A stretch of DNA of 64,000 nt from Bryobacterales bacterium. Its GTDB lineage: Bacteria > Acidobacteriota > Terriglobia > Bryobacterales > Bryobacteraceae. The translations under genes and the position numbers were made by a program. The stretch lies in assembly GCA_020852755.1 (NCBI GenBank), contig JADZAF010000099.1, positions 32,125 through 96,124 of the forward strand, in the 5' to 3' direction. Positions 8,503 to 60,217 of this stretch are shown here, in pieces. Within the stretch, counting starts at the first letter, position 1. Each line of letters begins with the position of its first letter. A model generated the notes under the pieces. The model saw nothing but the letters and a program-made list of their open reading frames with translations, did no database searches and was not told the origin of the DNA.

Positions 8503-9465
8503 CTACAGAAGGTCGCGCCGCCCGGCCAGTGCGATGCCGCCCAGAACTCCGGCCTGGTCTCCCAGGGCGGAGGGCTCGATGCGGACCTGGTCGACGGGAA
8601 ACATGCGCACCCGCTCGCGCACCGTCTCACGCACGGTATCGAACAGCAGGCCGCCGATCCCGGCCACGCCCCCGCCCAGCACGATGAGGTCGGGGTGCAG
8701 TGCGGTCACCAGGTTCGCCGCCCCGATGCCGAGGTACCGGGCCGCGCGCACCAGGGCGTCCCGCACCGGTTGCTCGCCCGCCTGGGCCGCCTGGGCCATG
8801 TGCCGGGGCGTGATGGCGCCCGCGTCGCCGGCCACCAGTTCGTGCAAACAGGGCGCCAGCCCCGCCCGCACCAGGCGCACCCCTTCCGCGGTAATCGCCG
8901 GTCCGCTGGCCAGCGCTTCCAGGCAGCCGTGGTTGCCGCAGCCGCACAGCGGGCCGCCCGGTAGAACGGTCTGGTGGCCGATCTCGCCGGCCGCTCCCAG
9001 CGCTCCCAGGTGCAGACGCCCGCCGATCACCAGCCCGCCGCCGATGCCCGTGCCCAGCGTGAAGAACACCATCGTGCGGACCGAACGGCCCTTGCCGAAG
9101 GCGAACTCGCCCAGGGCGGCCAGGCGTGCGTCGTTCAGCAGATAGACCGGGCAGTTCAGCCGGGCGGAAAGCGTCTCGGCGACGGGAACGCCCCGCCACT
9201 GCGTGGGCAGGTTGGGCAGGAACAGCGTGGCGCCGCGCGCGAAATCGATCAGTCCGGGCACGCCCATGCCCAGGGCGGCCGGAGACTCCCCGGCCTCGCA
9301 CGCCATGGCGAGGATCTCGGAAGCGATACGTTCCAGCACACTCTCCGGCCCCAGGTGCGACTGGGTGGGGATGGAGCGCGACAGGCGCAGCCGCCCGCTC
9401 GCTTCCCCCAGGGCCAAAGCGACGTTGGTGCCGCCCAAATCGGCGGCGGCGTAAAGCATACTCAT
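8503..9465 (-). CDS. ROK family sugar kinase (glucokinase-like)
   Basis: N-terminal DLGGTN ATP-binding motif and the ROK zinc motif CGCGNHGCLE. The start among the N-terminal Met codons is uncertain. Confidence 0.85.
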   Translation of the reverse strand: MSMLYAAADLGGTNVALALGEASGRLRLSRSIPTQSHLGPESVLERIASEILAMACEAGESPAALGMGVPGLIDFARGATLFLPNLPTQWRGVPVAETLSARLNCPVYLLNDARLAALGEFAFGKGRSVRTMVFFTLGTGIGGGLVIGGRLHLGALGAAGEIGHQTVLPGGPLCGCGNHGCLEALASGPAITAEGVRLVRAGLAPCLHELVAGDAGAITPRHMAQAAQAGEQPVRDALVRAARYLGIGAANLVTALHPDLIVLGGGVAGIGGLLFDTVRETVRERVRMFPVDQVRIEPSALGDQAGVLGGIALAGRRDLL

Positions 9466-10639
9466 GAGTGTGAAGGCCAATCATAAAACAGTTTGCGCCG
9501 CTGTCGCCCTGCTCTGCGGCCTGGCGGCGCTGGCCGGGCAAGCCCTCACGGTGCGCTACAACTATGGCGGCGATTGGAGCGGCCTCTTCGCCACGGGCGC
9601 CCAGGTCGCTCTGCCTCCCGAACTGGCCTTCGAACAGGTCTACCGCTTCCGCAACGATCCGGGCTACGACGGGCAGTTCTATCACCTGATCGCGCATGAC
9701 GCCTTCTTTCTCAACGGCTATCAGAAGCACGTGGACAATCCCCGGCTGCGCTGGCGCCGCATCCTCATCCCCGGCCTGGCTTATGTTCTGGCTCTGGGTG
9801 AGGCGGAGTACGTGGACTTCAACCTGATCGGCGTGAATCTGGCCTTCGTCGTCCTGGGCGCTTACTGGCTGAGCCGCTATGTGGCGCACTACGGTTTTCA
9901 TCCGGGGTGGGGGCTGCTGTTTCCCCTGACTCCGGCGGTGCTCGTTTCGCTGGATCGTTCGACGGTGGATACGGCGCTGGCCGCGCTCGCGGTAGGTTTT
10001 GGACTCTACGGGGCCGCGGCTCCATCCTGGCTGATCTATCCCGTTCTTGCGGCCGCGCCGCTGGCCCGCGAGACCGGCGTGGTTCTGACCGGCGCCTGGT
10101 GTCTCCACCGCCTGCTCCAGCGCGACTGGAGGGGCGCGGCCGCGGGCGCCCTGGCGGCCCTGCCGGCCCTGGTCTGGGTGGCGTTCGTGCACTCCCGGAC
10201 CGCGGCGGACCACACCGTCTTCGCATCGCCCTGGCCGCTGGCGGGGCTGCTGTCCCGCACCCTGCACCCCTTTCAATACAGCACTCACACCGCATGGCTT
10301 CTGAAGGCCGCCCTGCTCGACTACCTGGCCGTGCTGGGTGTCTGGGCCGCCCTTGCGCTTGCCCTGCGCCTTCTGAAAAAAGGCAAGCCCGGCCCGCTGG
10401 AGATCGCGGTTTGGCTGTTCGCGGGCATCTTCGTTCTCTTCCTCCAGCAGCCTCAGGCCTGGGCGGAGACCTACGCCTTCGGCAGAACCATGTCTCCCCT
10501 GCTGATCTGTCTCGCGCTGCTGGCGGTTGCCCGGCGCTTCTACTGGAACCTGGTCCCGCTGGCCATGGCGCTGCCGCGCGTCCTGTTCCAGTTGGGACCG
10601 CAATGGAAAGGAATTCTGCGCGGGATATTATCCCCCTGA
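9464..10639 (+). CDS. hypothetical polytopic membrane protein
   Basis: 391 aa with a signal/anchor N-terminus and 8-10 hydrophobic helices. I recognise no catalytic motif. Confidence 0.55.
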   Translation: MSVKANHKTVCAAVALLCGLAALAGQALTVRYNYGGDWSGLFATGAQVALPPELAFEQVYRFRNDPGYDGQFYHLIAHDAFFLNGYQKHVDNPRLRWRRILIPGLAYVLALGEAEYVDFNLIGVNLAFVVLGAYWLSRYVAHYGFHPGWGLLFPLTPAVLVSLDRSTVDTALAALAVGFGLYGAAAPSWLIYPVLAAAPLARETGVVLTGAWCLHRLLQRDWRGAAAGALAALPALVWVAFVHSRTAADHTVFASPWPLAGLLSRTLHPFQYSTHTAWLLKAALLDYLAVLGVWAALALALRLLKKGKPGPLEIAVWLFAGIFVLFLQQPQAWAETYAFGRTMSPLLICLALLAVARRFYWNLVPLAMALPRVLFQLGPQWKGILRGILSP

Positions 10640-10668: not shown

Positions 10669-11784
10669 ATGACGCACAGGGAGAGACTGCTCATCGCGCT
10701 GGAAGGAGGCAAGCCTGATCATTTGCCGGCCACGATCCATGGTTGGATGGACTACTGGCGCAATAAGTACATGAATGGCGCGGACCAGTTCGAGGCCTAC
10801 CGCTACTTCGACATGGACGCCCAGATTTTCTACTTCTCCTGGCTGGACGAACCCGTGGTTCCGGCCATGTACTTCACCGGCGACCTGGTGCCCGGTCCGG
10901 ACTGGAGGATCGCCTGCCGCGTGCTGAAGGACGACGAAGTGTCCACGGTGTACGAGTTCGAAATCCGCACTCCCGAAGGCACTCTCACCAAGACCATGGA
11001 GAAGACCGACAAGATGGCCTGGGTGACCGAGTACCCCATCAAGCACAAGGAGCAGATTCACTGGATCCGGAAGTACATGCCCCTGCCGCGCCCCGACATC
11101 GCGGATATCAACCGGGCCTTCGAGCGGATGAGAGACCAGGGCATCCTGCGGGCCGGCATCTTCAATCATCAGGGCGGCTGCTGGCAGGACGCCTGCAATT
11201 ACGTGGGCACCCAGCGCATGATCGTGGAGGCGCACGAGGACCCCGCCTGGGCCCACGAGTTCCTCAAGATCATTCTGGATTACAAGCTGCGATTCGTGGA
11301 GAGCCTGCGGGGCGCGCGCATCGACATGCTGGAGAACGGCGGCGGCGACGGCTCCATGTCGGTGATTTCCCCCAAACTCTTCTCCGAATACTGCGTGCCC
11401 TACGATCGCCAGGTAACCGAGGCCCTGCGCCGTGAGGGCATCAAGGTGGTCTACCACACCTGCGGGAAAATGATGGCCCAGTTGCACCTCATCGCCGGGA
11501 CCGGCGCCGACGCTTCGGAAACCCTGACGCCCGCCACCATGCATGGCGATGCCGACCTGCGCAGGATGAAGGATGTGCTGGGCCGGGAGATGTGCCTGAT
11601 CGGCGGCTTCGACCAGCAGGCCGGCTTCGAACGCGGCGTGAACATCCGGGCGCAGATCGCGAACATCTGGGAGCAGGCGGCTTCGAGCGGCGGCTTCATC
11701 ATGGGCGCCTCGGATCATTTCTTCGAGGGCGAGCCGGAACACATTCGCGAGTACGTGGAAGCCGCGCGCGAGTTGCGCTATTGA
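10669..11784 (+). CDS. uroporphyrinogen decarboxylase (URO-D) family protein, MtaA/CmuA-like methyltransferase type
   Basis: MTHRERLLIALEGGKPDHLPAT... N-terminus and overall length and pattern are typical of URO-D-fold methyltransferases. Its stop overlaps the next start (TGATG). Confidence 0.8.
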   Translation: MTHRERLLIALEGGKPDHLPATIHGWMDYWRNKYMNGADQFEAYRYFDMDAQIFYFSWLDEPVVPAMYFTGDLVPGPDWRIACRVLKDDEVSTVYEFEIRTPEGTLTKTMEKTDKMAWVTEYPIKHKEQIHWIRKYMPLPRPDIADINRAFERMRDQGILRAGIFNHQGGCWQDACNYVGTQRMIVEAHEDPAWAHEFLKIILDYKLRFVESLRGARIDMLENGGGDGSMSVISPKLFSEYCVPYDRQVTEALRREGIKVVYHTCGKMMAQLHLIAGTGADASETLTPATMHGDADLRRMKDVLGREMCLIGGFDQQAGFERGVNIRAQIANIWEQAASSGGFIMGASDHFFEGEPEHIREYVEAARELRY

Positions 11785-12710
11785 TGCAATTCGAATTCTT
11801 CCGGTTCCGTTTTCGCTTTCGCGCGGAGGAGCCCGTCGTTTTCCCGGCCGGCCAGTCCGGCAACATCCTGCGAGGAACGTTCGGCGCCATCTTCCGCCGC
11901 ATCGCCTGCCTGCCGGATTGCCCGGGGCCGGCCTCCTGCCGGCACCGCGGAGAGTGCGCCTACGCGCGGGTGTTCGAGCCGCGCCCGGCTTTCGAAACGG
12001 GCCCCAGCGGCCTGAAGAACTGGCCGCGCCCGTTCGTCTTCCGGGCCTCGCACCTGGACGGGCTGCGCCTGGAGCCGGGCAGCCGGTTTCACTTCGATGC
12101 GCACCTGTTCGACCTGGGCGATCCGCCGCTGCCCTATTTTCTGCTGGCCTTTGCTGAGCTTGCGCGCGAGGGTATCGGACCGCGGCGGGGCCGGGCCGCG
12201 CTGCTCGGCGTGGAGCAGTGGGACCGGGACCGCATGCTCCAGGCCAACGTTCCGCCCGACCGGCTTCTACCCCCGGTCCGGATTCCGCTTGAACCGGACG
12301 CGGGAAAAGTTCGAAACGCGTGCGTGCGCTTCGTCACCCCCACTGAGTTGAAGAGCGGCGAGCGGGTGGCGGAGCGGCCCGAGTTCGCCGTCCTCTTCGC
12401 CCGCGCGCGCGACCGCGTCAGCACCCTCCGGGCGCTCTACGGACCCGGCCCGCTGGATATCGATTTTCAGGGCATGGGTGAACGCGCCTCACGCGTGCGG
12501 ATGACACATTGCGATCTGCATCCCGAGTACGTGGAACGCCGGTCCAGCCGGACGGGGCAGACGCACCGCATCGGCGGCCTGATCGGACAAGCGGTCTACG
12601 AGGGAGAACTGGAGGAGTTCCTGCCGTACCTGCGCGCGGCCCGATGGACCGGGGTGGGACGGCACACGGTGTGGGGAAACGGCGTCATCGAGACCGATGC
12701 CGCCGGGTGA
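11784..12710 (+). CDS. cas6: Cas6-family endoribonuclease homolog (stand-alone, no array in window)
   Basis: N-terminal beta-strand [14 protein letters not shown], then [20 protein letters not shown], a C-x3-C-x5-C-x4-C-Y..VFEP zinc-finger-like insert, and a C-terminal glycine-rich loop [14 protein letters not shown]. All are hallmarks of Cas6. Start at the internal Met overlapping the upstream stop. Confidence 0.6.
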
Positions 12711-12844
12711 GGCCTTGCGGTCCGAACTCATCGGAACTCCGCCTCCGAGCCGCGACCAGAGGGAGCGGTGGAACCGCTCCGCGCCGCCGCCCTTGGAGCC
12801 GCCGCCCCGCCGGGCGATTCCCCCCCGGTGGTACACTCGTCACG

Positions 12845-13483
12845 ATGTCCCGACTGACTGTAATCCTGACGATCGTTCTGTTGATGGCGGGCTGCGCCGG
12901 CGAGGAGCAGGGCTTCGTGCAGCTCTTCAATGGAAAGGACCTGACCGGATGGACCCTGGTCCACGGGAAGGGCCCCGGCTACGTAGTGGAAAACGGAATT
13001 CTGGTCGCGCCCGAGGACGGCGGCGGCAATCTATACACCGAGAAACAATACTCTGATTTTGTGTTTCGCTTCGAGTTCCGCCTCTCTACCAACGGCAACA
13101 ACGGCCTCGGTATCCGCGCGCCGCTGGAGGGGGATGCGGCCTACCAGGGCATGGAGATCCAGATCCTGGATGACTACGGACCGGCGTACAAGGGCCGGCT
13201 CAAGCCCGCTCAGTACCACGGCTCGATCTACGACGTGGTGCCCGCCAGGACCGGCCACCTGAAGCCGGCCGGCGAATGGAACCAGGAAGAAGTCACCGCC
13301 AGCGGCCGGCGGATCACGGTGAAGCTGAACGGCACGGTGATCGTGGATGCCGACCTGGACTCCGTCAAGGACCCCGCGATTCTCGAGAAGCACCCGGGCC
13401 TGGCGCGCGCCAGCGGCCACATCGGCTTCCTGGGCCACAACACCCGCATGGAGTTCCGCAACATCCGCATCAAGGAACTGTAG
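12845..13483 (+). CDS. DUF1080 / 3-keto-disaccharide hydrolase domain protein (lipoprotein-like signal)
   Basis: Signal peptide with Cys (LLMAGCAGE), [10 protein letters not shown], and a ...[22 protein letters not shown]-terminus typical of the family. Confidence 0.8.
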
Positions 13484-22035: not shown

Positions 22036-22734
22036 TCAAGCCGTCATTCCCGCCAGCGCGCTCAAATCCAGCCGCCCCGTGTAGATGGCCATGCCGAGGG
22101 CGGCGTGAATGCCCAGCCGCGTCAGTTCCCGGATCTCCTCCAGCGTGGTGATGCCGCCGGCGGCGGTGAGTTCCAGACCGGTGGCGGCGCGCAGGCGGCG
22201 GAACCACTCCAGATCGGTGCCCTGCAGCATGCCTTCCTTGTCCACATAGGTACACAGGAACCCCGAGCAGTAGGGCTCCAGCTGTTTCAGCACCTGCTCC
22301 GCCTCCAGGTTGGTGGCCGAGCGCCAGCCCTTCACCACGATGCGGCCGCCTTTGGAGTCCAGCGCCACGATCAGGCGCTCGCGTCCGGCGGCCGCCGCCA
22401 GGGCTTCCAGAAACTCGCGGTTGATGCCGTCGGAATGAAACGCGGCCGTCCCGACGATGATCCTGTGCGCTCCCTGTTCCACCAGGTCCCGGGCCCGCTC
22501 CACCGAACGCACTCCGCCCCCGGCCCGCACCACCGCGCGCGAAGCCAGCAGGCGCACGATCTCCCCGTTGGAGCCTCTGCCCATGGCGGCGTCCAGGTCG
22601 ATCACCTGGATCTGGGGAAACGCGCGGAACCTCTCCAGCATCTCCAGGGGGCCCTCGGCCTCCAGCGCCTTTTCCCGGCCTTGCACCAGCTGGACGACCT
22701 TGCCGTCCATCAGGTCGATGCAGGGAATGATCAT
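22036..22734 (-). CDS. hisA: 1-(5-phosphoribosyl)-5-[(5-phosphoribosylamino)methylideneamino]imidazole-4-carboxamide isomerase
   Basis: [19 protein letters not shown]... Overlaps the hisF stop by 4 nt (ATGA). Confidence 0.9.
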
Positions 22735-23492
22735 GTCATCCGCACCGGAATGCCGTGGCGGCACAAGGTCTGCTTCAGTTCGGCGATCGAATACGTGCCG
22801 TAGTGGAAGATCGAGGCCGCCAGGGCGGCGTCGGCTTCCCCTTCCGTCAGCACCCGCACGAAGTCTTCCGGCTTTCCGGCGCCTCCCGAAGCGATCACCG
22901 GGATATGGGTGGCTCGCGATACCGCCCGGGTCAGTTCGCAGTCGAAGCCCTGCTGCACGCCGTCGGTGTCCATGGAGGTGAGCAGGATCTCGCCCGCGCC
23001 CAGCTGCTCCCCGCGCACCGACCACTCGACCGCGTCCATGCCTTCATCCACGCGTCCGCCTCGGGTGTACACGTGCCACTGGTCCTCGCCGTGCCGCTTG
23101 GCGTCCACCGCCAGGACCACGGCCTGCGAGCCGAATTCCTGGCTCAGCTCGGCGATCAGTTCGGGACGGCGCACCGCGGCCGTGTTCACCGAGACTTTGT
23201 CCGCCCCGGCCATCAGGATGCGGCGCGCGTCGGCCACCGAGCGTATGCCGCCCCCGACCGTCAGGGGAATGAAGACCTGGCGCGCCGTTCGCGCCACCAC
23301 GTCGGCCATGGTTTCCCGGTCGTCGCTGGATGCCGTGATGTCCAGGAATACCAGTTCGTCGGCGCCTTCGCGGTTGTACCTCTCGGCCAGTTCCACCGGG
23401 TCGCCCGCGTCGCGCAGGTTCACGAAATTGATGCCTTTGACGACCCGGCCTCCGGTTACGTCCAGGCAGGGAATAATCCGTTTGGCGAGCAT
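22731..23492 (-). CDS. hisF: imidazole glycerol phosphate synthase cyclase subunit
   Basis: [20 protein letters not shown]...[13 protein letters not shown]... Confidence 0.9.
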
Positions 23493-23495
23493 AAT

Positions 23496-24089
23496 CTATA
23501 GCTCCACGAAGTTTCGCATGATCTGAAGCCCCAGGTCTCCCGACTTCTCCGGATGGAACTGCACGCCGAAGACGTTGCCGCACTCGAGCACCGCCGTGTA
23601 GGAGACTTCGTAGGTGCAGGCGGCCGCCGTAGCGTCGATCACCGGGGCATAGTAGCTGTGGGCAAAGTACATGTGAGGCTGCGGGCCCAGCCCGGCCAGC
23701 AGTCTCGAGGGACGCACCGGCTCCAGGTTGCTCCAGCCCATGTGGGGGACGCGCGCCGTCAGGGGGAAGCGGCGTACGGCGCCGGCATAGAGTCCCAGCC
23801 CCGCCAGGCCCGGCGCCTCCTCGCTGCCCGTGAACAGCGCCTGCAGGCCCAGGCAGATGCCCAGAAAGGGTACGCCTTTCAGGATCAGATTGAGCAGCGG
23901 GCCGCGCACCTGCATGGCGTCCAGCGCCCGGATCATCTGCCCGAAGTGCCCTACCCCCGGCAGGATCAGCTTGCTCGGGTCGCGCAGACCGTCGGCATCG
24001 CGCACCAGCTCGTACGGCGCGCCCACTTCTTCCAGCGTGTTGGCCACCGAGCGCAGGTTCCCGGCCCCGTAATCCAGGACGGCGATCAT
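23496..24089 (-). CDS. hisH: imidazole glycerol phosphate synthase glutamine amidotransferase subunit
   Basis: [15 protein letters not shown]...GICLGLQ...FHPEKS is a class-I GATase triad context. Confidence 0.9.
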
Positions 24090-24673
24090 AGCAGCCCCTT
24101 GGTGGACGGCAGTTCCCCCCTGAGCCGCCGGTCCTTCGAACAGGCGAACTTCATGGCCCGCGCGAAGCACTTGAAGATCGCTTCCAGCTTGTGGTGGCTC
24201 GAGCGCCCGTAGAGCACGCGGGCGTGCAGGTTGGCCCCGGCGTGCTGGACGAAGCCGCCGAAGAAATCCTCCACCAGCTCCACGTCCAGGTCGCCCACCT
24301 TGCGAACCCGCACCAGGTCCCGGTAGACCAGCGCCGGCCGCCCTCCCAGGTCCACCGCCACCACGGCCAGGGTCTCGTCCATGGGCATGACGAAGTAGCC
24401 GGCGCGGTTGATGCCGCGGCGGTCGCCCAGCGCCTTGGAGAATAGCTGCCCCAGCACGATGCCGGTGTCTTCCACGGTGTGGTGCTGGTCCACATGCAGG
24501 TCGCCGCGCGCCTCCAGCGTCAGATCGAAGCCGCCGTGCCTGGCGAACAGTTCCAGCATGTGGTCCAGGAAGCTCACGCCGGTGGAGATCTGGTAGCGGC
24601 CCCGCCCTTCCAGTTTCAGTACCCCGCGAATGGCTGTTTCGCGCGTCTCCCGTTGGATGCTTGCGGTTCTCAT
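24086..24673 (-). CDS. hisB: imidazoleglycerol-phosphate dehydratase (monofunctional)
   Basis: [25 protein letters not shown]...FLDHML... About 196 aa with no fused phosphatase domain. Confidence 0.9.
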
Positions 24674-25344
24674 AGCACGCTCTCCAGCCCGTTGATGTCG
24701 TCGAGCACGGCGATGGCCTTCTGCTCCTCGAACAGGCGAACCAGTTCGCCGTGGCGCGGGTTGGCGGGCGAGGCGATGCCGATGAAGGGCGCCCCGGCCG
24801 CCAGCGCGCAGCGCGCATCGTCCACCGAGTCGCCCACGTAGTAGAGGCCGCTGCCCGGATGGAGGGAGCGGATCAGCAGCAACCCCTCGGGGTGCGGCTT
24901 CAGCCGGCTCACCTCTTCCATCCCGACAATGGGGTCGAAGGCCACTTGTGGGATGAATCGCCGCAGTGTGAATTCCGCCTCCCATTTCAAACGCCCCGTG
25001 AATACCGCCAGCCGGAAGCGCTCGCTCAGCCTCTCGAACAAACCGTCCGCGGCGATCCAGCGCTCGCGCATGATGAGGCCGTTGGTCCCGTCGCCGTGGA
25101 AGATGGACTGGAAGTAATCGACCACCGTCTGGAACTCGACCCGCACGCCCGCCTCCGCGATCAGCTTGTGGGAGAGCGACCAGTCGTCGTTCCACCCGCC
25201 CTGGTTCTTGATGTCCTGGATCAGGGTGCGGCTGGGCCGCTGCCCGGTGAAGTGCTCCACCGTCTGCTGGATGGTTTCGCGATAGGATTCGGTGACCTCC
25301 ACCAGCACGCCGTCCATGTCGAAGACCAGCAGGCAATTCACCAT
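24670..25344 (-). CDS. HAD-superfamily hydrolase (candidate histidinol-phosphatase)
   Basis: HAD motif I at the N-terminus, [10 protein letters not shown], and a downstream motif IV ([13 protein letters not shown]). It is embedded between hisC and hisB with 4-nt overlaps. Confidence 0.7.
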
Positions 25345-26441
25345 ATCTTCTCCAGTTCGCCCAGGAAACGCCGCACCTGCTCCCGGGTGCCTACCGTCAC
25401 GCGCACGCAGCCGGGGATCTCGTAGCTGCGGTCGCGCACCAGCACGCCCTGTTCCCTCAGGCGGTCGCGGATCTGAACGGCCCGCCGCCCCAGCCGCATC
25501 AGGATGAAGTTGCCCATGCTGCGGAAGTACGGGATGCCGAGCAGTTCCAGCCCCACGCCCAGCAGTTCGCGGGCGGCCAGCACCTCGGCCACGTACTCCT
25601 CCACGTAGGCCCGGTCGCGCACCGCCTCCACCGCGGCCAGCGCCGCCAGCGCGTTCACGCTGTAAGGCGATTGCGCCTTGTGCAGGAAGGCGATGTTGGC
25701 CGGCTGCGAGAACAGGCACCCCAGGCGCAGCGCCGCCATCCCGAACACCTTCGAGAACGTGCGGCTGACGAACAGGTTGGGGCTGCGCTCGATCAGCGGC
25801 AGCCCGGTGATCCCGCAGAACTCGAAGTAGGCTTCGTCGATCAGCACCGCGGCGTTGCGCGCGCGCTTCAGGATCTTCTCGATGGCCGGCAGTTGCACCC
25901 CGGTGCCGGTGGGATTGTTGGGATTGGCGATCAGGATCGCTTTGGTGGAGGGGCCGATGGCGGCCAGCAGTTCCTCCAGCGGAAAGGCCAGGTCTTCCGG
26001 GCGGTAGTCGATCTCGCGGATGCAGGCGCCCGCCACCTCCGCATAAAAGCGGTACATGGCGTAGGCGGGACGCAGCACCACCACCTCGTCGCCCGCGTTG
26101 GCATACGTGTTGACCAGCAGCTGGATGGCCTCGTCGGTGCCGTTGGTCAGAAGCATCTGCTCGGGCCTGACCCGGAAGAACTCGGCCAGCGCGGGCCGCA
26201 CCTGGCTGTACTCGGGGTAGACCGCCATGTGCTCCGCCGTGAGGTTCCCCTTCAGAAATTCGAGCACGCGCGGCGAACAGCCCAACGTGTTCTCGTTGAA
26301 ATCCAGCCGCAGCTTGCCGGCCCGCCCGTCCGTCGGGGGCGAATAGGGGGCCATGTCGAGCACGGATTGCCGCGGGCGCGGCATGCCCTTGCGCAACCGC
26401 GGAGTCTTAGCCACGGCGGCCTGCCTCCGCTGCCCGCGCAC
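25338..26441 (-). CDS. hisC: histidinol-phosphate aminotransferase
   Basis: Class-I aminotransferase motifs NPNNPTG and [16 protein letters not shown]. The start is uncertain: Met codons at 26441, 26387 and 26357 are all possible. Confidence 0.85.
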
Positions 26442-27687
26442 GGGGCGCCGCGGTCCTCGCCTCGACCGAACGGGCGTGCGCTTCCAGGCCCTCCGTCCTC
26501 GCCAGCGCCGTGATCGACGGCGCCAGCGAACGCAGGCCTTCCGCGCTCAGCTTCTGGACGGAAATCACCTTGACGAAATCCGCCGCCGAAAGCCCGCCGC
26601 GCAGCCGCGCCGCGCCGTTGGTCGGCAGCACGTGGTTGGGGCCGGACGCGTAATCGCCGGCGGCTTCGGGACTGAACGGGCCGATGAAGATGCTGCCGGC
26701 GCTGGTGATCCCGGCCAGCAGCGACTCGTCCGGAATGCTCAGGTGCTCCGGAGCGAACCGGTTGGAGATCTCCACCGCCTCGTCCAGCCTCCGCACCAGC
26801 ACGATGGCGCTGTTACGGTCGATCGAACGCCGGGCCACGGGCGCGGTCGGCAGGTCGCTCAGACGCCTCTCGATCTCCACCGCCACCGCCCGCGCCAGCC
26901 GCCGCGAGGGGGTCAGCAGGAAGGCGCTGGCATCCACGTCGTGCTCGGCCTGTGCCAGCATGTCGGCGGCCAGGCGGGCCGGGTCGCCCTCCTCCGCGAT
27001 GATCAGGATCTCCGTCGGGCCGGCAATGAAATCGATGCCCACCTCCCCGGCCAGCAGTTTCTTGGCTGCCGCCACGTAGATGTTGCCGGGGCCCACGATG
27101 CGCTCGGCCCGGGGCACCGTCTTCGTCCCGTACGCCAGGGCCGCGATGGCCTGCGCGCCGCCCATCTGGAACAGGTGCGTCACGCCCAGCCAGTGCGCCG
27201 TGCCGAGAACTGCCGCCGTGGGACGCGGGCAGGCCGCGCAGACCGTCTTTACCCCGGCCACCTGCGCGGGGATCACGGTCATCATCAGCGTCGAGGGCAG
27301 GGGATAGCGGCCGGCTGGGATGTAGGCGCCCACGGTCTCCAGCGGCCGCACGATCTGTCCCACTCTCAACCCGCGGCTCAACTGCCGCTGCTGCTCGCAG
27401 GGCAGCTGCATGGCCGCGAAGGCCCGGATATTGCCGGAGGCCGTTTCCACCGCGCGGCCGAATCCGGACGGCATGGTCCGGGCGGCCGCCTCCAGTTCCG
27501 CTTCCGGCACGCGCACGGAGCGGCCCTCGAAGCCGTCCAGCTTGCGCGCGTATTCCAGCAGACCGCGGTCCCCCCGCTTCTTCACCGCCTCCAGGATGGG
27601 CCGCACCACCGCTTCCGCCCCTTCCATGCGGGCAGCCCGCCGCGCGAAGAGCCTTTCCAACCCCGTGGATTCAAGGACTCGTATCAT
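26407..27687 (-). CDS. hisD: histidinol dehydrogenase
   Basis: About 426 aa, with HisD-typical ...AGPTE.../...DMLAQAEHD... motifs. Confidence 0.9.
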   Translation of the reverse strand: MIRVLESTGLERLFARRAARMEGAEAVVRPILEAVKKRGDRGLLEYARKLDGFEGRSVRVPEAELEAAARTMPSGFGRAVETASGNIRAFAAMQLPCEQQRQLSRGLRVGQIVRPLETVGAYIPAGRYPLPSTLMMTVIPAQVAGVKTVCAACPRPTAAVLGTAHWLGVTHLFQMGGAQAIAALAYGTKTVPRAERIVGPGNIYVAAAKKLLAGEVGIDFIAGPTEILIIAEEGDPARLAADMLAQAEHDVDASAFLLTPSRRLARAVAVEIERRLSDLPTAPVARRSIDRNSAIVLVRRLDEAVEISNRFAPEHLSIPDESLLAGITSAGSIFIGPFSPEAAGDYASGPNHVLPTNGAARLRGGLSAADFVKVISVQKLSAEGLRSLAPSITALARTEGLEAHARSVEARTAAPRARAAEAGRRG

Positions 27688-27692
27688 AGGCG

Positions 27693-28559
27693 CTACATGA
27701 CGATCTTGTTGAGCGGATACTCGACGATTCCCTCGCCGCCCGCCTGCTTCAGGCGCGGGACAATGCTGCGCACCGTCGATTCATCGACGATGGTGTTCAC
27801 CGCCAGCCAGTCCTCGTCGCTCAGGTGGGACACCGTCGGCCGTTTCAGCGCGGGCAGCACGTTGAGAACCGCTGCCAGGTTGTCGCGGTGCACGTTCAGC
27901 ATCAACCCCACCTTGCCCAGAGCCGCGATGGCGCCGTCCAGCAGCATGCGCATGTCCTCCAGCTTGCGCCGCTTCCACTCGTCCTGCCAGGCGTCGCAGT
28001 TGACGATCAGCTGGGTGTTCGATTCCAGCACCGTGTCGATGATCTTGAGCTTGTTGGCGCGCAGCGACGAGCCCGTCTCGGTCACCTCCACGATGGCGTC
28101 GGCCAGCACCGGCGGCTTGACCTCCGTGGCGCCCCAGCTGAATTCCACCTTGGCCTTCACCCCGTGCGCCGCCAGGTAACGCTTGGTGGTCTCCACCAGC
28201 TCGGTCGCGATGATCCTGCCTTCCAGGTCCCGCACGCTGCGGAAGGGTGAAGCCTCCGGCGCCGCCAGCACCCAGCGCACCTTGCCGAAGCTCTGCTTGG
28301 CGTACACCAGGTCGGCCAGAGCGATCACCTGGGCGCCGCTCTCCTCCACCCAGTCGCGGCCGGTGAGCCCCGCGTCCAGAATGCCGTCCTCCACGTAGCG
28401 CGCCATCTCCTGGGCGCGGATGAGCATGCACTCGATTTCCGGGTCGTCGATGCGCGGGAAGTAGGAGCGGCTGCTGGTGGTGATGGAGTAACCCGCCCGC
28501 CGGAACAGGTCGATGGTGGCGTTTTCCAAACTGCCTTTCGGGATGCCGAGCTTGAGCAT
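27693..28559 (-). CDS. hisG: ATP phosphoribosyltransferase (long form)
   Basis: [12 protein letters not shown]... N-terminus and a 288-aa long-form length. The start overlaps the hisI stop. Confidence 0.9.
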
Positions 28560-28939
28560 CACTTCTGCCCTCCGTAGACCGCCCCCGGCACGTAGCTGGG
28601 CGCTTCCGACTCCACCCAGCGGCCTTCGCTGAGCGAGCGGTAAAAGCAGCTCCGGTAGCCGTTGTGGCAGACGCCCGGCCCCAGGGCCTCGACCTGCACC
28701 AGCACGGCGTCCCGGTCGCAGTCCGTGGATATCGATTTCACCGCCAGGCGGTGCCCCGAGGTCTCGCCCTTCATCCAAAGCTTCCGGCGCGAGCGGCTGT
28801 AAAACGTGGCGAAGCCCGTCTCCACGGTTTGCCGGAAGGCCGCTTCGTTCATGTACCCGACCATCAGTACGCGGCCGGAGGCGTGGTCCTGAATCACGGC
28901 GGTCACCAGACCGCCGGCTTTGTCGAAGTCCAGATCCAT
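28559..28939 (-). CDS. hisI: phosphoribosyl-AMP cyclohydrolase
   Basis: ...[17 protein letters not shown]...WMKGETSGH... is conserved HisI. Start placed at the ATG (MDLDFD...); the track's upstream TTG extension is less likely. Confidence 0.85.
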
Positions 28940-28949
28940 TGAGCGCAAC

Positions 28950-28978
28950 AAAAAAGCCCGCCATCTTTCGTGGCGGGC
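28950..28978 (-). terminator. his attenuator terminator: GCCCGCCA-cgaaaga-TGGCGGGC stem followed by UUUUUU (read on minus strand)
   Basis: An 8-bp GC stem with a 7-nt loop and a 6-U run lies immediately 5' of the hisI start, inside the leader region. Coordinates are accurate to about +/-1. Confidence 0.7.
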
Positions 28979-29023
28979 GTCCTTTCCTTTTACGATTTCG
29001 AGTGAGTTCGAAGCGCGCGCCCG

Positions 29024-29077
29024 TCACACGATGGCGTGGTGGTGATGAGGATGCCGGGCGCTGCGAACTGCTAACAT
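29024..29077 (-). CDS. hisL: his operon leader peptide [17 protein letters not shown] (His-codon attenuator)
   Basis: Minus-strand ATG TTA GCA GTT CGC AGC GCC CGG CAT CCT CAT CAC CAC CAC GCC ATC GTG TGA is preceded by SD GAGGAA. Five of 17 codons are His, four of them consecutive. A terminator follows, and the overlapping segments GCGCCCG/CGGGCGC/CGCCCG allow alternative pairing. Confidence 0.75.
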
Positions 29078-33385: not shown

Positions 33386-36300
33386 CTACCCGTTTTCCCC
33401 CGCGGTTCGGGCGATCTGAAGGAGATAAAAGCGCAGCATATCCTGCTGCCGTCCGGAGAGGGCCTGCTCCTCGATCCGGATAATCTGCTTCACTTCCTTC
33501 ATCGCCCGGACCACGCTGGTGGGAAGCTCCACCGAGCCCCGGGGCATTGACGACAGGTATTCGAAAGCCGCCCGCAGAAAGTGCTGCAGCGAATCCTCGG
33601 CCGGCCCGCTCAGGAACGTCGCCACCTCGCGCGGCTTCTTGGAGATGCCGGAGGTGAAGGGCATCTCGGAAACCGGTGTGCGTTGAGCGATCGAGTGCAG
33701 CGCCGTGGCCAGTTCCACGAAGCTCGCCACGCGCGTGAATACCGGTTCCTGCAGCAGCTCCCAGGCCTTCTCGCGCCAGCCCCGGATCTTTTCCGGAAGC
33801 TCCAGCAGCCGTTCCACCTCCCCGCGCCAGGAGGCCGGCACCCCGCCCCCGATCTCCCGCAGCAGCGCGCCGGCGCTGGTGTTGAAGAGGTCCGGCTGCA
33901 GCAGCACCGCCAGGTCCGGCCGCAGCGCCGGCAGCAGCCGCGGGATGAAGCGATCACCTTCGAAGAACTCGGCCACTTGCACGCCGTGCCGGCGCACCAC
34001 TTCCTTTTGGAACAGCGGGATGGTGGTCCGGATGGAATCCACGTCTTCGCGCAGCAGGGTGAAGGCCGAATTGCCGGCCGGGAACGCGCGCTCCATGGCG
34101 CCCAGCCAGCGCAGCTCCACGTCGTGATAGAGCCGCAGCGAATGCAGGATCTCGTAGACCGGAAGGTGCGGCAGGATCCTGCCGGACAGCATGCCCTCGC
34201 CTTCCCCCTCCGAGGACGGGGTTCGGGCGAACGAACTCAGCGTCCGGAACAGCCCGGTGGTCAACTGGTTGATGCCCAGCAGCAGGGTCTGGGCCTGGTT
34301 GTGCCCGATGGCCCGCAGCGAGCTGCCGTGCCGCGCCAGGGGCACGGTGGCCGCGATCCGCTCCAGGATCTTGTGTCCCCGGCTGGCGGCCACTCCCGGA
34401 GCCGGCCGCACCGTCGGCCGGTCCCGCAGCGGCGGCAGCGTCCGGGCGATGAAGTACGAGATCGCGTAGATGCCCACCACGTCCTCTTCGCGGCCGTAGA
34501 GGATCCGGCGGAAGTTTTCCGCCGCGAGTTTCATGAATTCGTCGAACAGTGGGTCCTGCAATCCCACCGTCAGGCGCCCCAGCTCCTGGAGACCGCGATT
34601 GGTGAATTGGAGCCGGGTTTCCGTCAACGGCTCCGCCGCGCGGCGCAGCTCGTTGGCCGAGAATCGCTGGGCCTGCGTCAGGTGATACAGCACCTGCGCC
34701 AGTTCCTCCACGGGCAGGTGCCGCAGCCGTTCCGCCAGGTTGCTCTGGAAGGTCCGGAGGTCGCCGCTGGCGAACAGTCCCATCAGGGGCGTGGCGGCAT
34801 AGCGCGCGCTGCGCTTGGCCGAAGCTTCCACGAGCCTGCCCAGGGCGGCTTCATTCTCGGAAGTCAGGATGAAGGCGCGCCGGCCGGAGATCGGCGCCAG
34901 GTAGCCGCCCTGCCGCTGCATCGGCTCGCCGCTGCCCATCTTGATGCGCACCTGCCCCACCAGGCCGCGCTCGGCCAGCCAGCGCACGATCTCGTACTTC
35001 GCCTTTTTGAAGGCGGCCAGCCCGGCGGTCTGGCCGACCTGCTGGCTCAGATCCGAGCCGGCGATGAAGACCTCGCACACCATGTCGGAAAACCGCTCCT
35101 CGGTGCTCTCGTTCAACCGGCGGCTCTGGATGGCGTAGTCCCACAGCTTTCCCAGGTAGGCCGGCACGTTGCGCACCACTTCCAGGTCCTCATACAAAGG
35201 CACCAGCCAGATGGAAGGCAGCTCCGGGCAGCCCGAGCGCAGCGCCTGCTCGCGCTTGGCCCGGATCTTGCGGTCCAGCGAGATCAGCGCTTCGGCATCG
35301 GACGCCATGCTCACCTGCAGCGCCAGCACCATGCCGGGGTTGCCCTGCCGGCCCGAAATCTCGTTGATCTCTACAATGTTGTGCACCGTGGTGTCGATGG
35401 CGAAGGGATCCGGCGAGGTCACCAGGTTCTGATGGATGCGCGGCGTGATCACGAAGCGCCGCAGCAGGTCGCGGTAGCCCGCCGCGGCCAGGGCGAATTC
35501 ACTGTCCCGGACGTGCTTGCGCAACTCGCCCAGGTGCGCCCGCAGCGTCTTGCGCAGGGCTTTGTTCAGCGCGAAGTAGTGTTCCAGGGTCTGCCGCCGC
35601 TGCCGCCGCAGTTCCAGCATTCGCCGCTCCAGGCGGTCGTTATGCTCCCACAGCGAGACCACCGGGTCCTGCGCCAGGCGCAGCTTCATCCCCAGCCTGC
35701 GGACTACGCCCGGCCGCACGTCGTAGGGGAGCAGGCCGCGGTAGCGGCGCTCGAGCTGGTGGGTCAGATCGGTGATCGCGTCGAATAGCGCACTGAAGCG
35801 CCGGTTGGCCATCGGCAGCCGCCGCACTTCCTCCACCAGGTTCGGATCCACCGGAAGAGCCGGGTTGGCCCTCAGGAGCATGGCCAGCAGCCGCCCCAGC
35901 CGGGCGCAATTCTCCATCAGCACCGTCGCCACCAGGCGGTGCCCCTGCCCCGACGGCCGGTTGCTGCCGTCCCAATCGCCCCAGTAGGAGAGAAAGGTGG
36001 GGCACTCCGTGGCGGAGCTGAAGCGGGCGAAATCCTCTGCCGCGATCATCGCGTCCAGGTCCAGCAGCAATTCAGTGCCTTCACCCCGCGAGTCGATCGC
36101 CACGTTGAGTCCCAGAAACTCGCGCGCCAGTTCTCTCGCCAGCGGCTGCTCCAGTTCGTCCGCCGGCCGGCCCGCGGTCAGGTTGGCGACGGCGCGCTCC
36201 CAGAGCATCTCCGACTGGATCGAGTACATCTGGGTGGGGTGTACGGTGCGATCGAAAAGCCGCTGCCGGAATGAAACCTGCCGGCGCCCCAGGTCGTCCT

Positions 36301-38971
36301 TGACCAGTTCCTGGTCCAACTGCTGTTCGAGCTTCCTGCCGTCGTCCGCCCGGGCCAGGGCCAGCCACTCCTGGGCCAGTTCCAGGCGGTCCCGGAAGCG
36401 CGAACCGAAGACCTCCAGGCGGTCGTTCAGGAACTCCCCCGGAGAGGCCGCGTCCGCGCTCCACTTGGCGGGCGCGTTCAGTTCCTTCAACTCCCGCCCG
36501 ATGCGCTCCCGGCAGGACTCGGCCACCCGGCTGCTGAAGGCCGCCCACTGCCGCTCCCGCTCGGCTCGCTCCACCCCCTGGTAGAGGCGCCGGCTGGAAA
36601 CGGCCAGCCATTTCCGGTTGTAGTGGGATTCCTCTTCCGCGATCAGCCGGTTCAGATCGATCAGGACGCGGCGGGTCTTGGTTCGAAGCCGGTCCGCGCC
36701 GTCCGTGCCGCCCAGAGTCAGCCGGAACGATTTTCGCGCGGTCTCGAAGCCCTCTTCGGTACGCGCGAAGGTGGAAAGCGGGACGAGGCCGATTCCCTGG
36801 CGCGCCAGTCCCGAGGCGATCCAATCCAGCGAGATTCCCGCCGGGAGCTGCCGCAGCGTCATGCGCGGATACATGCTGCCCGCCGGGCGGGTGAGCGCGA
36901 TCCCGAAGGGATTGCGTTCCGAAGGCAGACCGGCCGCCGCCGTCTCGAGCGCGCTCATCCGCTCCTCGAAGATCGCGTTCCGCAGCCGCCAGTACGAGTT
37001 GGTGCTCTGCGCTCCCTTGCGGTAGAACAGGTAGGCCAGCAGCATCGCTCCGATGTTCGGCGCGATGGTGCTGTTGACGGCTTCAAACCGCCGGTGCAGC
37101 TCCGCGTCCCGGATCTCGATCACCGAAAGCCGGGCGCCCGCCAGGCAATCCGTCTTCGAGAGCGAATGCACCGTGACCACCCGGCCGGCCTGTTCCGCCG
37201 TGAGGTAGCCCCGGCCCGCCAGGTCGTCGGCCAGTTGCCGCAGCGTGGCGGGTCCCTGCAATTCCCTGGAAGGCGCCACGTTCTGGTAGGAAAGGTCGTC
37301 GATCACCAGCACCCCGCGCTCCAGGAAATGCCGGAGCAGGGTGCGCAGCGCCTCTTCGGAAAAGACCTGGCCGGTGGCGTTGTGCGGGTTGTTGAAGACC
37401 ACCGCTCCGTGATTGCGCCACGCGGGGTCCCCGGCCAGCCGCTGCTCGACCGCCTCGATCATCCGCTCCACGTCCAGTTCAAACTCCGGGGTAAGGGGAA
37501 CCGCGGTCACTTTCGGGAAGCAGTGTTCGTAGGTCCAGCTCAGGTCCGGAATCACCACCTCCCGGATCCCGCAGTGGAACCCGAGCAGGCTGAGACCGGT
37601 GCGCGCCGATCCGCTCACCGCCATGCAGCGGTCGAAGCGGTACTCCGGGTGATGCCGCAGGAAAGCGGCAAGGAAAGCGCCGGGCAGTTCCGCGTGCCGG
37701 GCCGGCAGCGCTTCGAGCAGTTCGAGGAACCCCAGCCCCTCGAAGGGATCGCCGATGAACGAGTCGCGCAGCGCGGGCTCCCACAGTCTCTCCGCCCGCT
37801 CCGCGGCCCGCGCGGATGCCGCATCCAGCCGCTGTTCGATCCTCTCTCCCCAGGCGCTCGAAATCCGGGCTGCCCTGGCCTGGATCGCGGCAATGGCCGC
37901 TCCGGCCGCCCGGTAGGCCCCCTCCAGAACCGCATGGTTTTCGTCGTACAGCCGTTCCTCCGCCTCCGGCCGGGTTTCCAATTTCGGCAATCCCCGCTTC
38001 AGCAGAAAGGTCAATAGTTCGACTTCGGCCGCCGAGGGAGTGCCCTTCACTTGAAAGTGCAAGGTCTCGATCATCCGGATGAATTCGTCGAAACCGGCGA
38101 TGAAGACCGTGGACAGTTCCTTGAGGCGCGGGGAGAAGATGCCCGGAGTGAGGAACCGCAGGGTGCGGTGCATCATCTTCGCTTCCCGCGCCACCGACAG
38201 GTGGTTCGGGGCGTCGTTCACCTCCACGATGAACAGCGGGTAGTCGCGGCTGATCAGCCGCAGCCTGCGCCGCGTCTCTTCCGGAAGAATCCTGCCCAGC
38301 AGCACGAAAGACGGCCGGACCCCATTGGGCGCCAGGGAGGTTTCCAGCAGCGTCGCGGCGGCGCTTTCGTTTTCGGGAAGCGGATGCAACCGGAGCGCCT
38401 CAAACTGCCTCAGGTGAGGCGGAATCCGGATCCCGTGCGTGAAGATGGTCGCCGGCAGGTGCTCCAACTGCGTCGAGAGGGCGTGAAAGAAGACCCGCAG
38501 CGCCTCGTAGATCCCGCCCGACGCCAGGATCACTTCCCGCCGCCCGGTCTTCTCGCCGAAATCGTAGGTCAGCGGCTCCGGCTGTTTCGCCAGCCACTCG
38601 CCGAACAGCCGGATCAGCTCCCCCGGCTTGTTCTTCAGGAATCCGCCCCGCGGCAGATACGGCGCGCTGTTCCGGATGAGGTTCAGCAGGAACTCGATTT
38701 TGCCCCGGTCTTCCGCCTCCCAGCCCAGCTCGGCGCTCAGAGCCTGCGCCAGGTCGCCCGTCCCCGCCTTCTCTCCCCCTTCCAGTCCCAGCGCGATTCG
38801 GGCATACAATTCCGCCAGGCGCGGGTCCTGCACCGGGTTGCCGATATGGAAGTTGACGCGCTCTTCGGGCGGCGCGGGCGAGGACGCCGTGGCTTCGCTG
38901 ATCTCCGAAACCACCGCGGCCTTCACCGGCCGCAGGGCAAAGACGTCGGGTGAACTCTCACGCATGCGCAT
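33386..38971 (-). CDS. 1861-aa multidomain protein: class-I/II PLP aminotransferase-fold domain(s) fused to a C-terminal divergent PEP-carboxylase-like domain
   Basis: Aminotransferase motifs at residues 527-534 (NNPHNATG) and 603-615 (SLSKTDCLAGARL), with VNFHIGNPVQDP near the N-terminus. C-terminal region: GRQGNP (cf. PEPC GGDRDGNP), VPLYEDLEVVRNVP (cf. VPLFETxxDLxNA), FIAGSDLSQQ (cf. MIGYSDSAKD), KMGSGEPMQRQGG (cf. FHGRGGSIGRGG), and a C-terminal ...IARTAGENG (cf. ...IAAGMRNTG). Confidence 0.65.
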   Translation of the reverse strand: MRMRESSPDVFALRPVKAAVVSEISEATASSPAPPEERVNFHIGNPVQDPRLAELYARIALGLEGGEKAGTGDLAQALSAELGWEAEDRGKIEFLLNLIRNSAPYLPRGGFLKNKPGELIRLFGEWLAKQPEPLTYDFGEKTGRREVILASGGIYEALRVFFHALSTQLEHLPATIFTHGIRIPPHLRQFEALRLHPLPENESAAATLLETSLAPNGVRPSFVLLGRILPEETRRRLRLISRDYPLFIVEVNDAPNHLSVAREAKMMHRTLRFLTPGIFSPRLKELSTVFIAGFDEFIRMIETLHFQVKGTPSAAEVELLTFLLKRGLPKLETRPEAEERLYDENHAVLEGAYRAAGAAIAAIQARAARISSAWGERIEQRLDAASARAAERAERLWEPALRDSFIGDPFEGLGFLELLEALPARHAELPGAFLAAFLRHHPEYRFDRCMAVSGSARTGLSLLGFHCGIREVVIPDLSWTYEHCFPKVTAVPLTPEFELDVERMIEAVEQRLAGDPAWRNHGAVVFNNPHNATGQVFSEEALRTLLRHFLERGVLVIDDLSYQNVAPSRELQGPATLRQLADDLAGRGYLTAEQAGRVVTVHSLSKTDCLAGARLSVIEIRDAELHRRFEAVNSTIAPNIGAMLLAYLFYRKGAQSTNSYWRLRNAIFEERMSALETAAAGLPSERNPFGIALTRPAGSMYPRMTLRQLPAGISLDWIASGLARQGIGLVPLSTFARTEEGFETARKSFRLTLGGTDGADRLRTKTRRVLIDLNRLIAEEESHYNRKWLAVSSRRLYQGVERAERERQWAAFSSRVAESCRERIGRELKELNAPAKWSADAASPGEFLNDRLEVFGSRFRDRLELAQEWLALARADDGRKLEQQLDQELVKDDLGRRQVSFRQRLFDRTVHPTQMYSIQSEMLWERAVANLTAGRPADELEQPLARELAREFLGLNVAIDSRGEGTELLLDLDAMIAAEDFARFSSATECPTFLSYWGDWDGSNRPSGQGHRLVATVLMENCARLGRLLAMLLRANPALPVDPNLVEEVRRLPMANRRFSALFDAITDLTHQLERRYRGLLPYDVRPGVVRRLGMKLRLAQDPVVSLWEHNDRLERRMLELRRQRRQTLEHYFALNKALRKTLRAHLGELRKHVRDSEFALAAAGYRDLLRRFVITPRIHQNLVTSPDPFAIDTTVHNIVEINEISGRQGNPGMVLALQVSMASDAEALISLDRKIRAKREQALRSGCPELPSIWLVPLYEDLEVVRNVPAYLGKLWDYAIQSRRLNESTEERFSDMVCEVFIAGSDLSQQVGQTAGLAAFKKAKYEIVRWLAERGLVGQVRIKMGSGEPMQRQGGYLAPISGRRAFILTSENEAALGRLVEASAKRSARYAATPLMGLFASGDLRTFQSNLAERLRHLPVEELAQVLYHLTQAQRFSANELRRAAEPLTETRLQFTNRGLQELGRLTVGLQDPLFDEFMKLAAENFRRILYGREEDVVGIYAISYFIARTLPPLRDRPTVRPAPGVAASRGHKILERIAATVPLARHGSSLRAIGHNQAQTLLLGINQLTTGLFRTLSSFARTPSSEGEGEGMLSGRILPHLPVYEILHSLRLYHDVELRWLGAMERAFPAGNSAFTLLREDVDSIRTTIPLFQKEVVRRHGVQVAEFFEGDRFIPRLLPALRPDLAVLLQPDLFNTSAGALLREIGGGVPASWRGEVERLLELPEKIRGWREKAWELLQEPVFTRVASFVELATALHSIAQRTPVSEMPFTSGISKKPREVATFLSGPAEDSLQHFLRAAFEYLSSMPRGSVELPTSVVRAMKEVKQIIRIEEQALSGRQQDMLRFYLLQIARTAGENG

Positions 38972-54943: not shown

Positions 54944-55408
54944 TTACGCTTTCCGCCTGATCGGCCACTGGCATACCCGGCCGATCCCCTGGCGTGCCAG
55001 GAGTCCGGCGCGGTCCTCCGCCTTGCACCCTGGAAAGAGGAAGCGCGGGTCCTCGAGCTCCTCCTTCAGAAAAGCCTCGAGAACTTCCTCGACGGAACCG
55101 CTCACCAACGGGATGATGCGTATGCCTGCCGAAGCCAGCATGGCCACCGCGGGGCGCGAGACCACGCCGCAAATCAGCACTTCCACCCCCAGGCTCCGAA
55201 GCAGCTTCACCCGGTTCACCGGAGCCACGCCTTTCAAAACCGCGGCTGTCCGCTCCAACGCGCGCCCGCCCAGGCACTCCACCGCCAGCAGCCGGCCGGC
55301 GAAATCGAACGTGGCGGCAATCCGGCTCCGGCTGATGGGGAATGCGACTGTTACCGCTCCGCTTCGGGGCGATCTGGCGCTAGCAGTAGGATCCTGGCTC
55401 GATGGCAT
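54944..55408 (-). CDS. NifX/NifB-family (dinitrogenase FeMo-cofactor-binding domain, DUF-like) protein
   Basis: VAFPIS...FDFAG..., ...ICGVVS.../...IPLVSGSVEEVLEAF... is the NifX/NafY-like fold. Its 5' end overlaps the racemase 3' end and no clean start codon is found. Confidence 0.55.
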   Translation of the reverse strand: MPSSQDPTASARSPRSGAVTVAFPISRSRIAATFDFAGRLLAVECLGGRALERTAAVLKGVAPVNRVKLLRSLGVEVLICGVVSRPAVAMLASAGIRIIPLVSGSVEEVLEAFLKEELEDPRFLFPGCKAEDRAGLLARQGIGRVCQWPIRRKA

Positions 55409-57837: not shown

Positions 57838-57925
57838 GGAGGTTTTTCAGGTGTCCTTGGGCCAAGCCGGCCCCGGCCCGGCCCCGTAGTCCTGAGAGTC
57901 GGGTTGACCGGGCCGGCGCCGAAAG

Positions 57926-58204: not shown

Positions 58205-58225
58205 TGTTGAACCTCCTGTCTTTCT

Positions 58226-58744: not shown

Positions 58745-58765
58745 CGCTCACCCGGCATGCACGGC

Positions 58766-58866: not shown

Positions 58867-58876
58867 TGAAAACGCC

Positions 58877-60217
<1,341 letters not shown>

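Follow-up and report, generated by a model that had tools for sequence, protein, structure and literature searches.

The stretch of 64,000 nucleotides analysed here (hereafter the window), from contig JADZAF010000099.1 of a Bryobacterales bacterium, encodes a genuine, intact and full-length Cas6 of 308 amino acids (gene cas6, positions 11784-12710 of the plus strand; NCBI accession MCC6858572.1), which stands alone within 64 kb, without a CRISPR array or other cas genes. Proteins of this family are RAMP endoribonucleases, and Cas6 cuts CRISPR transcripts into guide RNAs. We favour, with moderate confidence, the reading that the Cas6 of the window is an ordinary one, that its locus shows a modular pattern already known in its 'empty' state, and that it is kept for CRISPR transcripts that are encoded elsewhere in the genome. 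The lone state was found to be the usual one for this Cas6 family in related soil Acidobacteriota, and the lone copies are under purifying selection.

Identity and conserved features of the Cas6 protein

The translated product of cas6 was 100% identical to MCC6858572.1, a protein from a metagenome-assembled genome of the Bryobacterales (Acidobacteriota) that NCBI had already named Cas6, and the gene is a correctly annotated member of a known family. Its closest database relatives reach 62% identity at most. A sequence-only reading of the window had proposed the Cas6 identity from motifs and had pointed to profile searches as a means of checking it. When these were run, the protein gave significant matches to the PADLOC Cas6 profile PDLC01477 (E = 2.9e-75, with amino acids 1-304 of 308 aligned to profile positions 1-294 of 296), to a second PADLOC Cas6 profile, PDLC01496 (E = 6.3e-47), and, in its C-terminal domain (amino acids 181-301), to Pfam PF10040 (54.4 bits, the cut-off being 25); an NCBIfam scan returned zero matches for it. 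The ATG of cas6 agrees with the N-terminus of homologues in a 21-sequence alignment, the open reading frame (ORF) is intact, and every invariant or near-invariant family residue that was checked is kept.

An AlphaFold2 model was built on 21 homologues and reached a predicted local distance difference test score (pLDDT) of 85.8 and a predicted template modelling score of 0.85. Searched with Foldseek, the model returned Cas6 structures or Cas6 fusion proteins as all of its top 35 matches in the PDB (E-values down to 3.3e-12), the best of which, with template modelling scores of 0.5-0.67, include 4ILL, 4C9D, 3ZFV and 6DD5, whereas a sequence search of the PDB gave no significant match, the relationship being detected by fold comparison only. 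Solved Cas6 structures consist of two tandem ferredoxin-like/RRM domains, and the window protein is predicted to have the Cas6 fold. By its PADLOC, Pfam PF10040 and Foldseek PDB matches the identification lies far beyond chance, and the identity first proposed from motifs is borne out.

The individual hallmarks that had been listed were also located. An N-terminal ferredoxin-like strand is present at amino acids 3-14 and forms a beta strand in the predicted model, the motif described as G-N-x-LRG-x-FG is present as G26-N27-x2-R30-G31-x2-G34, and the C-terminal glycine-rich loop, a RAMP hallmark, occupies amino acids 289-300 (codons at 12648-12683, plus strand) within the PF10040 match. This loop reads G290-x-G292-R293-x3-W297-G298-x-G300, and its named residues are invariant in relatives, whilst R30, R87, H90, K190 and H261 are kept in all or nearly all of them. 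Catalytic residue sets (His/Tyr/Lys or Arg/Lys) vary between Cas6 families; R30, H90 and H261 are put forward here as candidate catalytic residues, chosen as invariant positions only, with roles that are not transferable from remote structures.

The protein also carries a Cys4 insert, C42-x3-C46-x5-C52-x5-C58 (codons at 11907-11957, plus strand), which is a predicted metal-binding site. The four cysteines had been recognised in the sequence-only reading, but the last gap had been given as x4, where the full motif is C42-x3-C46-x5-C52-x5-C58-x-Y60-x2-VFEP; literature support for the 'zinc-finger Cas6 variants' with which it had been compared was not found, and a literature search for zinc or iron-sulfur Cas6 returned nothing specific. 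All four cysteines are invariant in the 21-sequence alignment. Residues were further compared in 77 relatives from other genomes, comprising 65 encoded by lone genes and 12 by genes linked to cas genes; each cysteine was kept in at least 72 of the 77, with 60-64 of the 65 lone and 12 of the 12 cas-linked relatives retaining them. On this pattern of conservation the Cys4 site probably binds metal, in a region that is modelled at lower confidence (pLDDT 64-74).

CRISPR-Cas components in the window

No CRISPR array was found in the 64-kb window by Tandem Repeats Finder (TRF), by a direct-repeat search or by a spaced k-mer scan, and an Rfam scan of the same sequence returned 0 families. The repeat motif of the Cas6 family gave 9 matches in the window against 5.1 +/- 2.0 expected, every one of them with 3 mismatches, and is therefore not above chance; nor was any repeat-like hairpin above chance. 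When type I-B Cas proteins from relatives were used as tblastn queries, the window gave zero matches. It contains 58 ORFs with a length of 110 amino acids or more; 53 of them were searched against Pfam, and Cas6 was the only cas family detected. The lack of a repeat array or other cas gene, which had been noted in the sequence-only reading, was upheld. Downstream of cas6, the spacer of 134 nt that separates it from the next gene (12711-12844) was found by sequence reading and repeat-motif searches to be without a CRISPR repeat, a relic repeat or a cas pseudogene.

Genes of histidine biosynthesis, namely two of the His_biosynth family together with those for an aminotransferase, a histidinol dehydrogenase and an ATP phosphoribosyltransferase (HisG), are encoded on the minus strand at 22036-29027, and these locate cas6 in the core chromosome.

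Lone and cas-linked copies across the Acidobacteriota

A total of 80 Cas6 loci, from different species and all within the Acidobacteriota, were fetched from the 542 species genomes that encode the Cas6 family of the window, and cas linkage was scored within 10 kb of cas6. In 12 of the 80 loci the 10 kb downstream of cas6 contained cas genes, and a CRISPR array was present as well in 11 of these 12. Ten of the cas-linked loci were type I-B-like, some of them partly decayed, and PADLOC recognised two variants of this operon, comprising Cas3, Cas8a-like or Cas8b, Cas7, Cas5, Cas1, Cas2 and Cas4. The other two, L010 and L015, were type I-G, with Cas3g, Cas8g/Csx17, Cas7g, Cas5-6g/Csb2, Cas4-Cas1 and Cas2; at both (L010:9974-20067 and L015:9974-20909) the stand-alone Cas6 is encoded directly upstream of a type I-G locus that owns a Cas5-Cas6 fusion. 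Flanks of a full 10 kb to either side of cas6 were available at 43 loci, and 33 of these had no cas gene nearby. A literature search for genomically isolated Cas6, and for Cas6 in Acidobacteria, found nothing specific, the 'standalone Cas6' of PMC5965381 being one that is outside the effector complex and not one that is genomically isolated.

A neighbour-joining tree showed lone and cas-linked Cas6 copies to be intermixed, with one clade of approximately 17 species made up exclusively of lone copies. Ratios of nonsynonymous to synonymous substitution rates (dN/dS) for pairs of lone copies ranged from 0.06 to 0.25 at unsaturated dS of 0.1-0.8, and those of cas-linked pairs lay in the same range. 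Amongst the 65 lone and 12 cas-linked copies, no alignment column was found that separates the two groups. The low dN/dS, the lack of a discriminating column and the intermixed tree together indicate that lone copies are kept up as enzymes of the same type as the cas-linked ones, with no decay or visible change of function.

No conserved partner gene of cas6 emerged when approximately 1,290 neighbouring ORFs were clustered, since no family occurred in more than 16 of the 80 loci. The neighbours that do recur, including a formyltransferase with an ACT domain, a thioesterase, a TPR protein, an AAA+ ATPase with a response-regulator domain, translation initiation factor IF-3 and an outer-membrane beta-barrel protein, belong to unrelated housekeeping, regulatory or outer-membrane families that differ by lineage, with synteny within sub-clades only.

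These distributions bear on the possibility that the lone Cas6 has been recruited to a task outside CRISPR, for example the processing or regulation of host RNAs with a repeat-like hairpin, and that this task explains its retention in the core genome. The predominance of loci with no cas gene within 10 kb, the lone-only clade with its lineage-specific housekeeping synteny and the purifying selection on lone copies would all be in keeping with such a role, as would two genome pairs, described below, in which homology is limited to the cas6 ORF. However, one would expect the protein to bear traces of a switch of substrate, and the intermixed lone and cas-linked copies have every invariant residue in common, with no column to tell them apart. 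Neither a conserved partner gene amongst the 80 loci nor an above-chance hairpin in the window was found, and distant arrays may yet exist; we regard a CRISPR-independent role as unlikely. It is also conceivable that the lone cas6 that prevails in Bryobacterales and other Acidobacteriota neither awaits nor serves CRISPR arrays but encodes a resident host RNA endonuclease with a cellular substrate, possibly metal-dependent or redox-sensitive through its Cys4 site, and that CRISPR-Cas modules repeatedly land beside this ready-made processing enzyme, a speculation that we hold to be quite unlikely.

Origin of the lone state

A direct comparison of the two states was provided by the lone locus L040 and the cas-linked locus L039, a closely related pair in which a stretch of 9.7 kb, ending with the stop codon at the 3' end of cas6, is collinear at 81% DNA identity; beyond cas6, only L039 carries a full type I-B operon, cas8b-cas7-cas5-cas3-cas1-cas2-cas4, and an array. 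It has been described that cas6 can act as an 'attractor' gene, which stays put while neighbouring modules exchange (Koonin and Makarova 2019, PMC6452270), and the pattern of L039 and L040 fits this description.

Other relatives are in intermediate states. At four loci (L041, L074, L076 and L078) the effector genes beside cas6 are fragmented or missing, at three (L035, L044 and L069) a single relic repeat lies 80-400 nt downstream of cas6, and at L066 a two-repeat mini-array is present. Read as a decay series from complete loci, through those with broken effector genes, to a relic repeat or mini-array, these states raise the possibility that the cas6 of the window has no present function and survives, as yet uninactivated, from a CRISPR-Cas locus that has decayed. 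Against this, the ORF of the window is intact and has kept all of the invariant or near-invariant residues checked, the downstream spacer is only 134 nt long with neither a relic repeat nor a cas pseudogene alongside, and the dN/dS of lone pairs stays within 0.06-0.25 out to dS above 0.5, which implies long-term constraint. A functionless remnant is disfavoured because of this purifying selection on lone copies, and we consider it improbable.

Between the cas6 stop codon and the relic repeat, L035 (10950-11370) and L044 (10965-11180) contain several copies of a motif of approximately 17 nt, TTTTGCGAAACGAAGCC, with variants such as GCGGAACGAAGCC and CCGAACGAA, which could be a leader-like or regulatory element. 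In two further comparisons, L051 with L041 (9960-10951) and L069 with L079 (10001-10920), DNA homology of 81-84% was limited to the cas6 ORF and the flanks were unrelated, as if cas6 were the sole unit to have been retained or transferred.

Proposed function of the lone Cas6

The reading that we prefer, an ordinary Cas6 in the empty state, would account for these observations as follows. Type I-B or I-G modules and their arrays are found immediately downstream of cas6 in some relatives, most have nothing there, and the window represents the empty state, with cas6 on its own in a core region of the chromosome. The window gene probably encodes a normal and active Cas6 endoribonuclease of CRISPR RNA (crRNA) precursors, from a family with a wide distribution in the Acidobacteriota.

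The likely form of its substrate can be sketched from the cas-linked relatives. Arrays beside the I-B-type loci have in common a 37-nt repeat (examples being GAAGTAATCGATGCCCCTTCGCGAAGGGGACTGAAAT and GAAGUAAUCGAUGCCCCUUCGCGAAGGGGACUGAAAU), in which a short 3'-proximal hairpin is followed by an 8-nt tail, A(C/T)TGAAA(C/T), of ACTGAAAC type or ATTGAAAC-like; the array repeat of the type I-G locus L010, ATTTCCGCGACTCTTAAGTCGCGGCCCCATTGAAGC, is unlike that of the I-B-type loci. Cas6 is a metal-independent endoribonuclease that cuts repeat RNA 8 nt from its 3' end, and a hairpin with an 8-nt tail is the classic layout of a Cas6 substrate, in which a cut at the base of the hairpin leaves an 8-nt 5' handle. 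By analogy, the target of the window Cas6 would be a 37-nt repeat with A(C/T)TGAAA(C/T) at its end; the enzyme would bind the short 3'-proximal hairpin (CCCC-loop-GGGG) and cut at the hairpin base, leaving the same 8-nt 5' handle. In the source genome, CRISPR transcripts from elsewhere would most likely be the substrate. Its RNase activity, its substrate and its action on distant arrays are what we infer to be most likely from the cas-linked relatives.

Several observations may weigh against this proposal. A Cas1 profile search, within the best 120 of its 2709 matches, placed no cas1 on large contigs with a lone cas6, and the only contigs concerned were two already known to be cas-linked. The clade of approximately 17 species with exclusively lone copies is also compatible with a CRISPR-independent role. 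In the 64-kb window no array or effector operon of the source genome was seen, action on distant arrays being the step that we infer. The Cas6 subfamily has no solved structure or biochemical study, in line with the lack of a match in the PDB sequence search.

The URO-D-like gene upstream of cas6

Immediately upstream of cas6 lies a gene encoding a URO-D-superfamily protein of 371 amino acids (10669-11784, plus strand), which matched Pfam PF01208 with E = 2e-20 and 73.5 bits against a cut-off of 23.9. Reading of the sequence confirmed that the ATG of cas6 (11784-11786) overlaps the TGA stop codon of this gene (11782-11784) by 1 nt, within the pentanucleotide TGATG (11782-11786, plus strand), as had been noted, an arrangement that suggests translational coupling. 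A scan for sigma-70 consensus promoters found 2 sites against 0.4 expected, and a weak sigma-70-like match, TGGAAA-16-TATTAT, lies upstream of the URO-D gene (10604-10631, plus strand), a possible start of a URO-D/cas6 transcript. Because of the one-base overlap and this weak upstream site, the two genes are probably co-transcribed.

The sequence-only reading had gone further, labelling the neighbour a URO-D/MtaA-like methyltransferase and suggesting that Cas6 might have an RNA-processing role tied to a corrinoid or methyl-transfer enzyme. Membership of the URO-D superfamily stands on the PF01208 match, but the likeness to MtaA is weak, the protein scoring 54.8 bits against a cut-off of 235.4 for NCBIfam TIGR01463 (MtaA/CmuA). 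With 30.3 bits for NF041608 (cut-off 600) and 17.1 bits for TIGR01464 (hemE; cut-off 302.95), it falls well under the NCBIfam cut-offs for MtaA/CmuA, MtbA and HemE; since these are missed so widely, the label 'methyltransferase' is not established.

Conservation of the gene pair was assessed from both sides. No URO-D homologue was encoded within 10 kb of Cas6 at any of the 80 related Acidobacteriota loci. Relatives of the URO-D protein in the database reach 73-81% identity and are thus much closer to it than those of Cas6, and at the three close orthologues examined (74-81% identical) there was likewise no Cas6 neighbour; one lay in a glycan-utilisation cluster, another near genes for a P-type ATPase and a VWA protein, and the third near that for a PMT-type glycosyltransferase. 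A two-gene module of Cas6 and the URO-D-like enzyme, in which RNA processing would be tied to a methyl-transfer or corrinoid-type enzyme, has in its favour the stop/start overlap and promoter-like site that suggest co-transcription. It is contradicted by the occurrence of the pairing at 0 of 80 Cas6 loci and 0 of 3 URO-D loci, by the wide margin under the MtaA/CmuA cut-offs and by the glycan-utilisation setting of one orthologue, and such a link is in our judgement extremely improbable; as a functional module, the pair was rejected from the Cas6 side and the URO-D side alike. The one-base overlap does not point to a common function, and the adjacency is an accidental outcome of gene order.

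The orthologue in the glycan-utilisation cluster (P0125 at L081:1-9050, 79% identical) is accompanied there by genes for an outer-membrane beta-barrel protein, GH95, DUF5703, a second URO-D paralogue and RhaM. This context hints at a carbohydrate-related role for the URO-D subfamily, and not at methyl transfer.

Other genes of the window

The genes flanking the pair had been described as those of a membrane protein and a DUF1080 hydrolase, and both descriptions proved correct. Upstream, a membrane protein of 391 amino acids (9464-10639, plus strand) has no Pfam match; a 391-amino-acid protein without a Pfam match also occurs near the URO-D orthologue at L083. Downstream, the gene at 12845-13483 (plus strand, with its ATG at 12845) matched PF06439, the DUF1080 or 3-keto-disaccharide hydrolase family, with E = 4.8e-45.

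The window as a whole has a G+C content of 66% and also encodes a nucleotidyl transferase with a GlmU-like hexapeptide domain, a ROK-family protein, a superoxide dismutase, a KDPG/KHG-type aldolase and sigma-54 activators. At 33386-38971, on the minus strand, an ORF of 1861 amino acids has an aminotransferase class I/II domain (amino acids 434-757) as its sole Pfam match. Three small PF02579 proteins, of the dinitrogenase FeMo-cofactor-binding family, are encoded at 54944-61057 in a cluster of genes unrelated to cas6, together with two CbiA-type P-loop ATPases with 4Fe-4S ferredoxin motifs, an Asp/Glu racemase and a PAS/sigma-54 activator.

Significance and comparison with known systems

At the level of the window the result is of little significance, in that its Cas6 was already annotated correctly and the link to methyl transfer that had been suggested fails. 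The phylum-wide pattern, of a Cas6 family that is usually encoded alone and yet is under purifying selection, is more useful. If many of the genomes with a lone cas6 have no arrays, the family would cleanly exemplify a Cas protein retained for a non-CRISPR purpose; if distant arrays exist, the family measures how often crRNA processing is provided from a separate locus, which affects the scoring of CRISPR-Cas loci as complete.

The URO-D-like neighbour shares with the MtaA/CmuA methylcobamide:CoM methyltransferases the PF01208 superfamily only, and scores under their cut-offs. Cas6 itself most resembles the COG5551/PF10040-type enzymes of type I-B and related class 1 systems, in its match to PDLC01477, its glycine-rich loop and its predicted two-lobed fold, and relatives of the window gene adjoin cas3-cas8-cas7-cas5-cas1-cas2-cas4 and arrays as in those systems. 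It differs from them in the invariant C-x3-C-x5-C-x5-C insert and in having no array or cas gene within 64 kb. The overall fold is predicted to be like that of the structurally characterised Cas6 enzymes of Sulfolobus solfataricus (4ILL, 3ZFV), Thermus thermophilus (TTHB231/TTHA0078; 4C9D, 4C8Y) and Pyrococcus furiosus (3PKM), with Foldseek E-values of 3e-12 to 1e-7 and template modelling scores of 0.42-0.67, whereas sequence identity to these enzymes is only 12-18%.

The closest parallel in genomic organisation is the attractor cas6 of PMC6452270. As there, cas6 of this family remains fixed while what adjoins it varies: either of two variants of type I-B, a type I-G module, or nothing. In the published cases effector modules are exchanged next to a cas6 and/or adaptation module that stays in place, whereas in the Acidobacteriota family the solitary cas6 is the commonest state, and it is under purifying selection.

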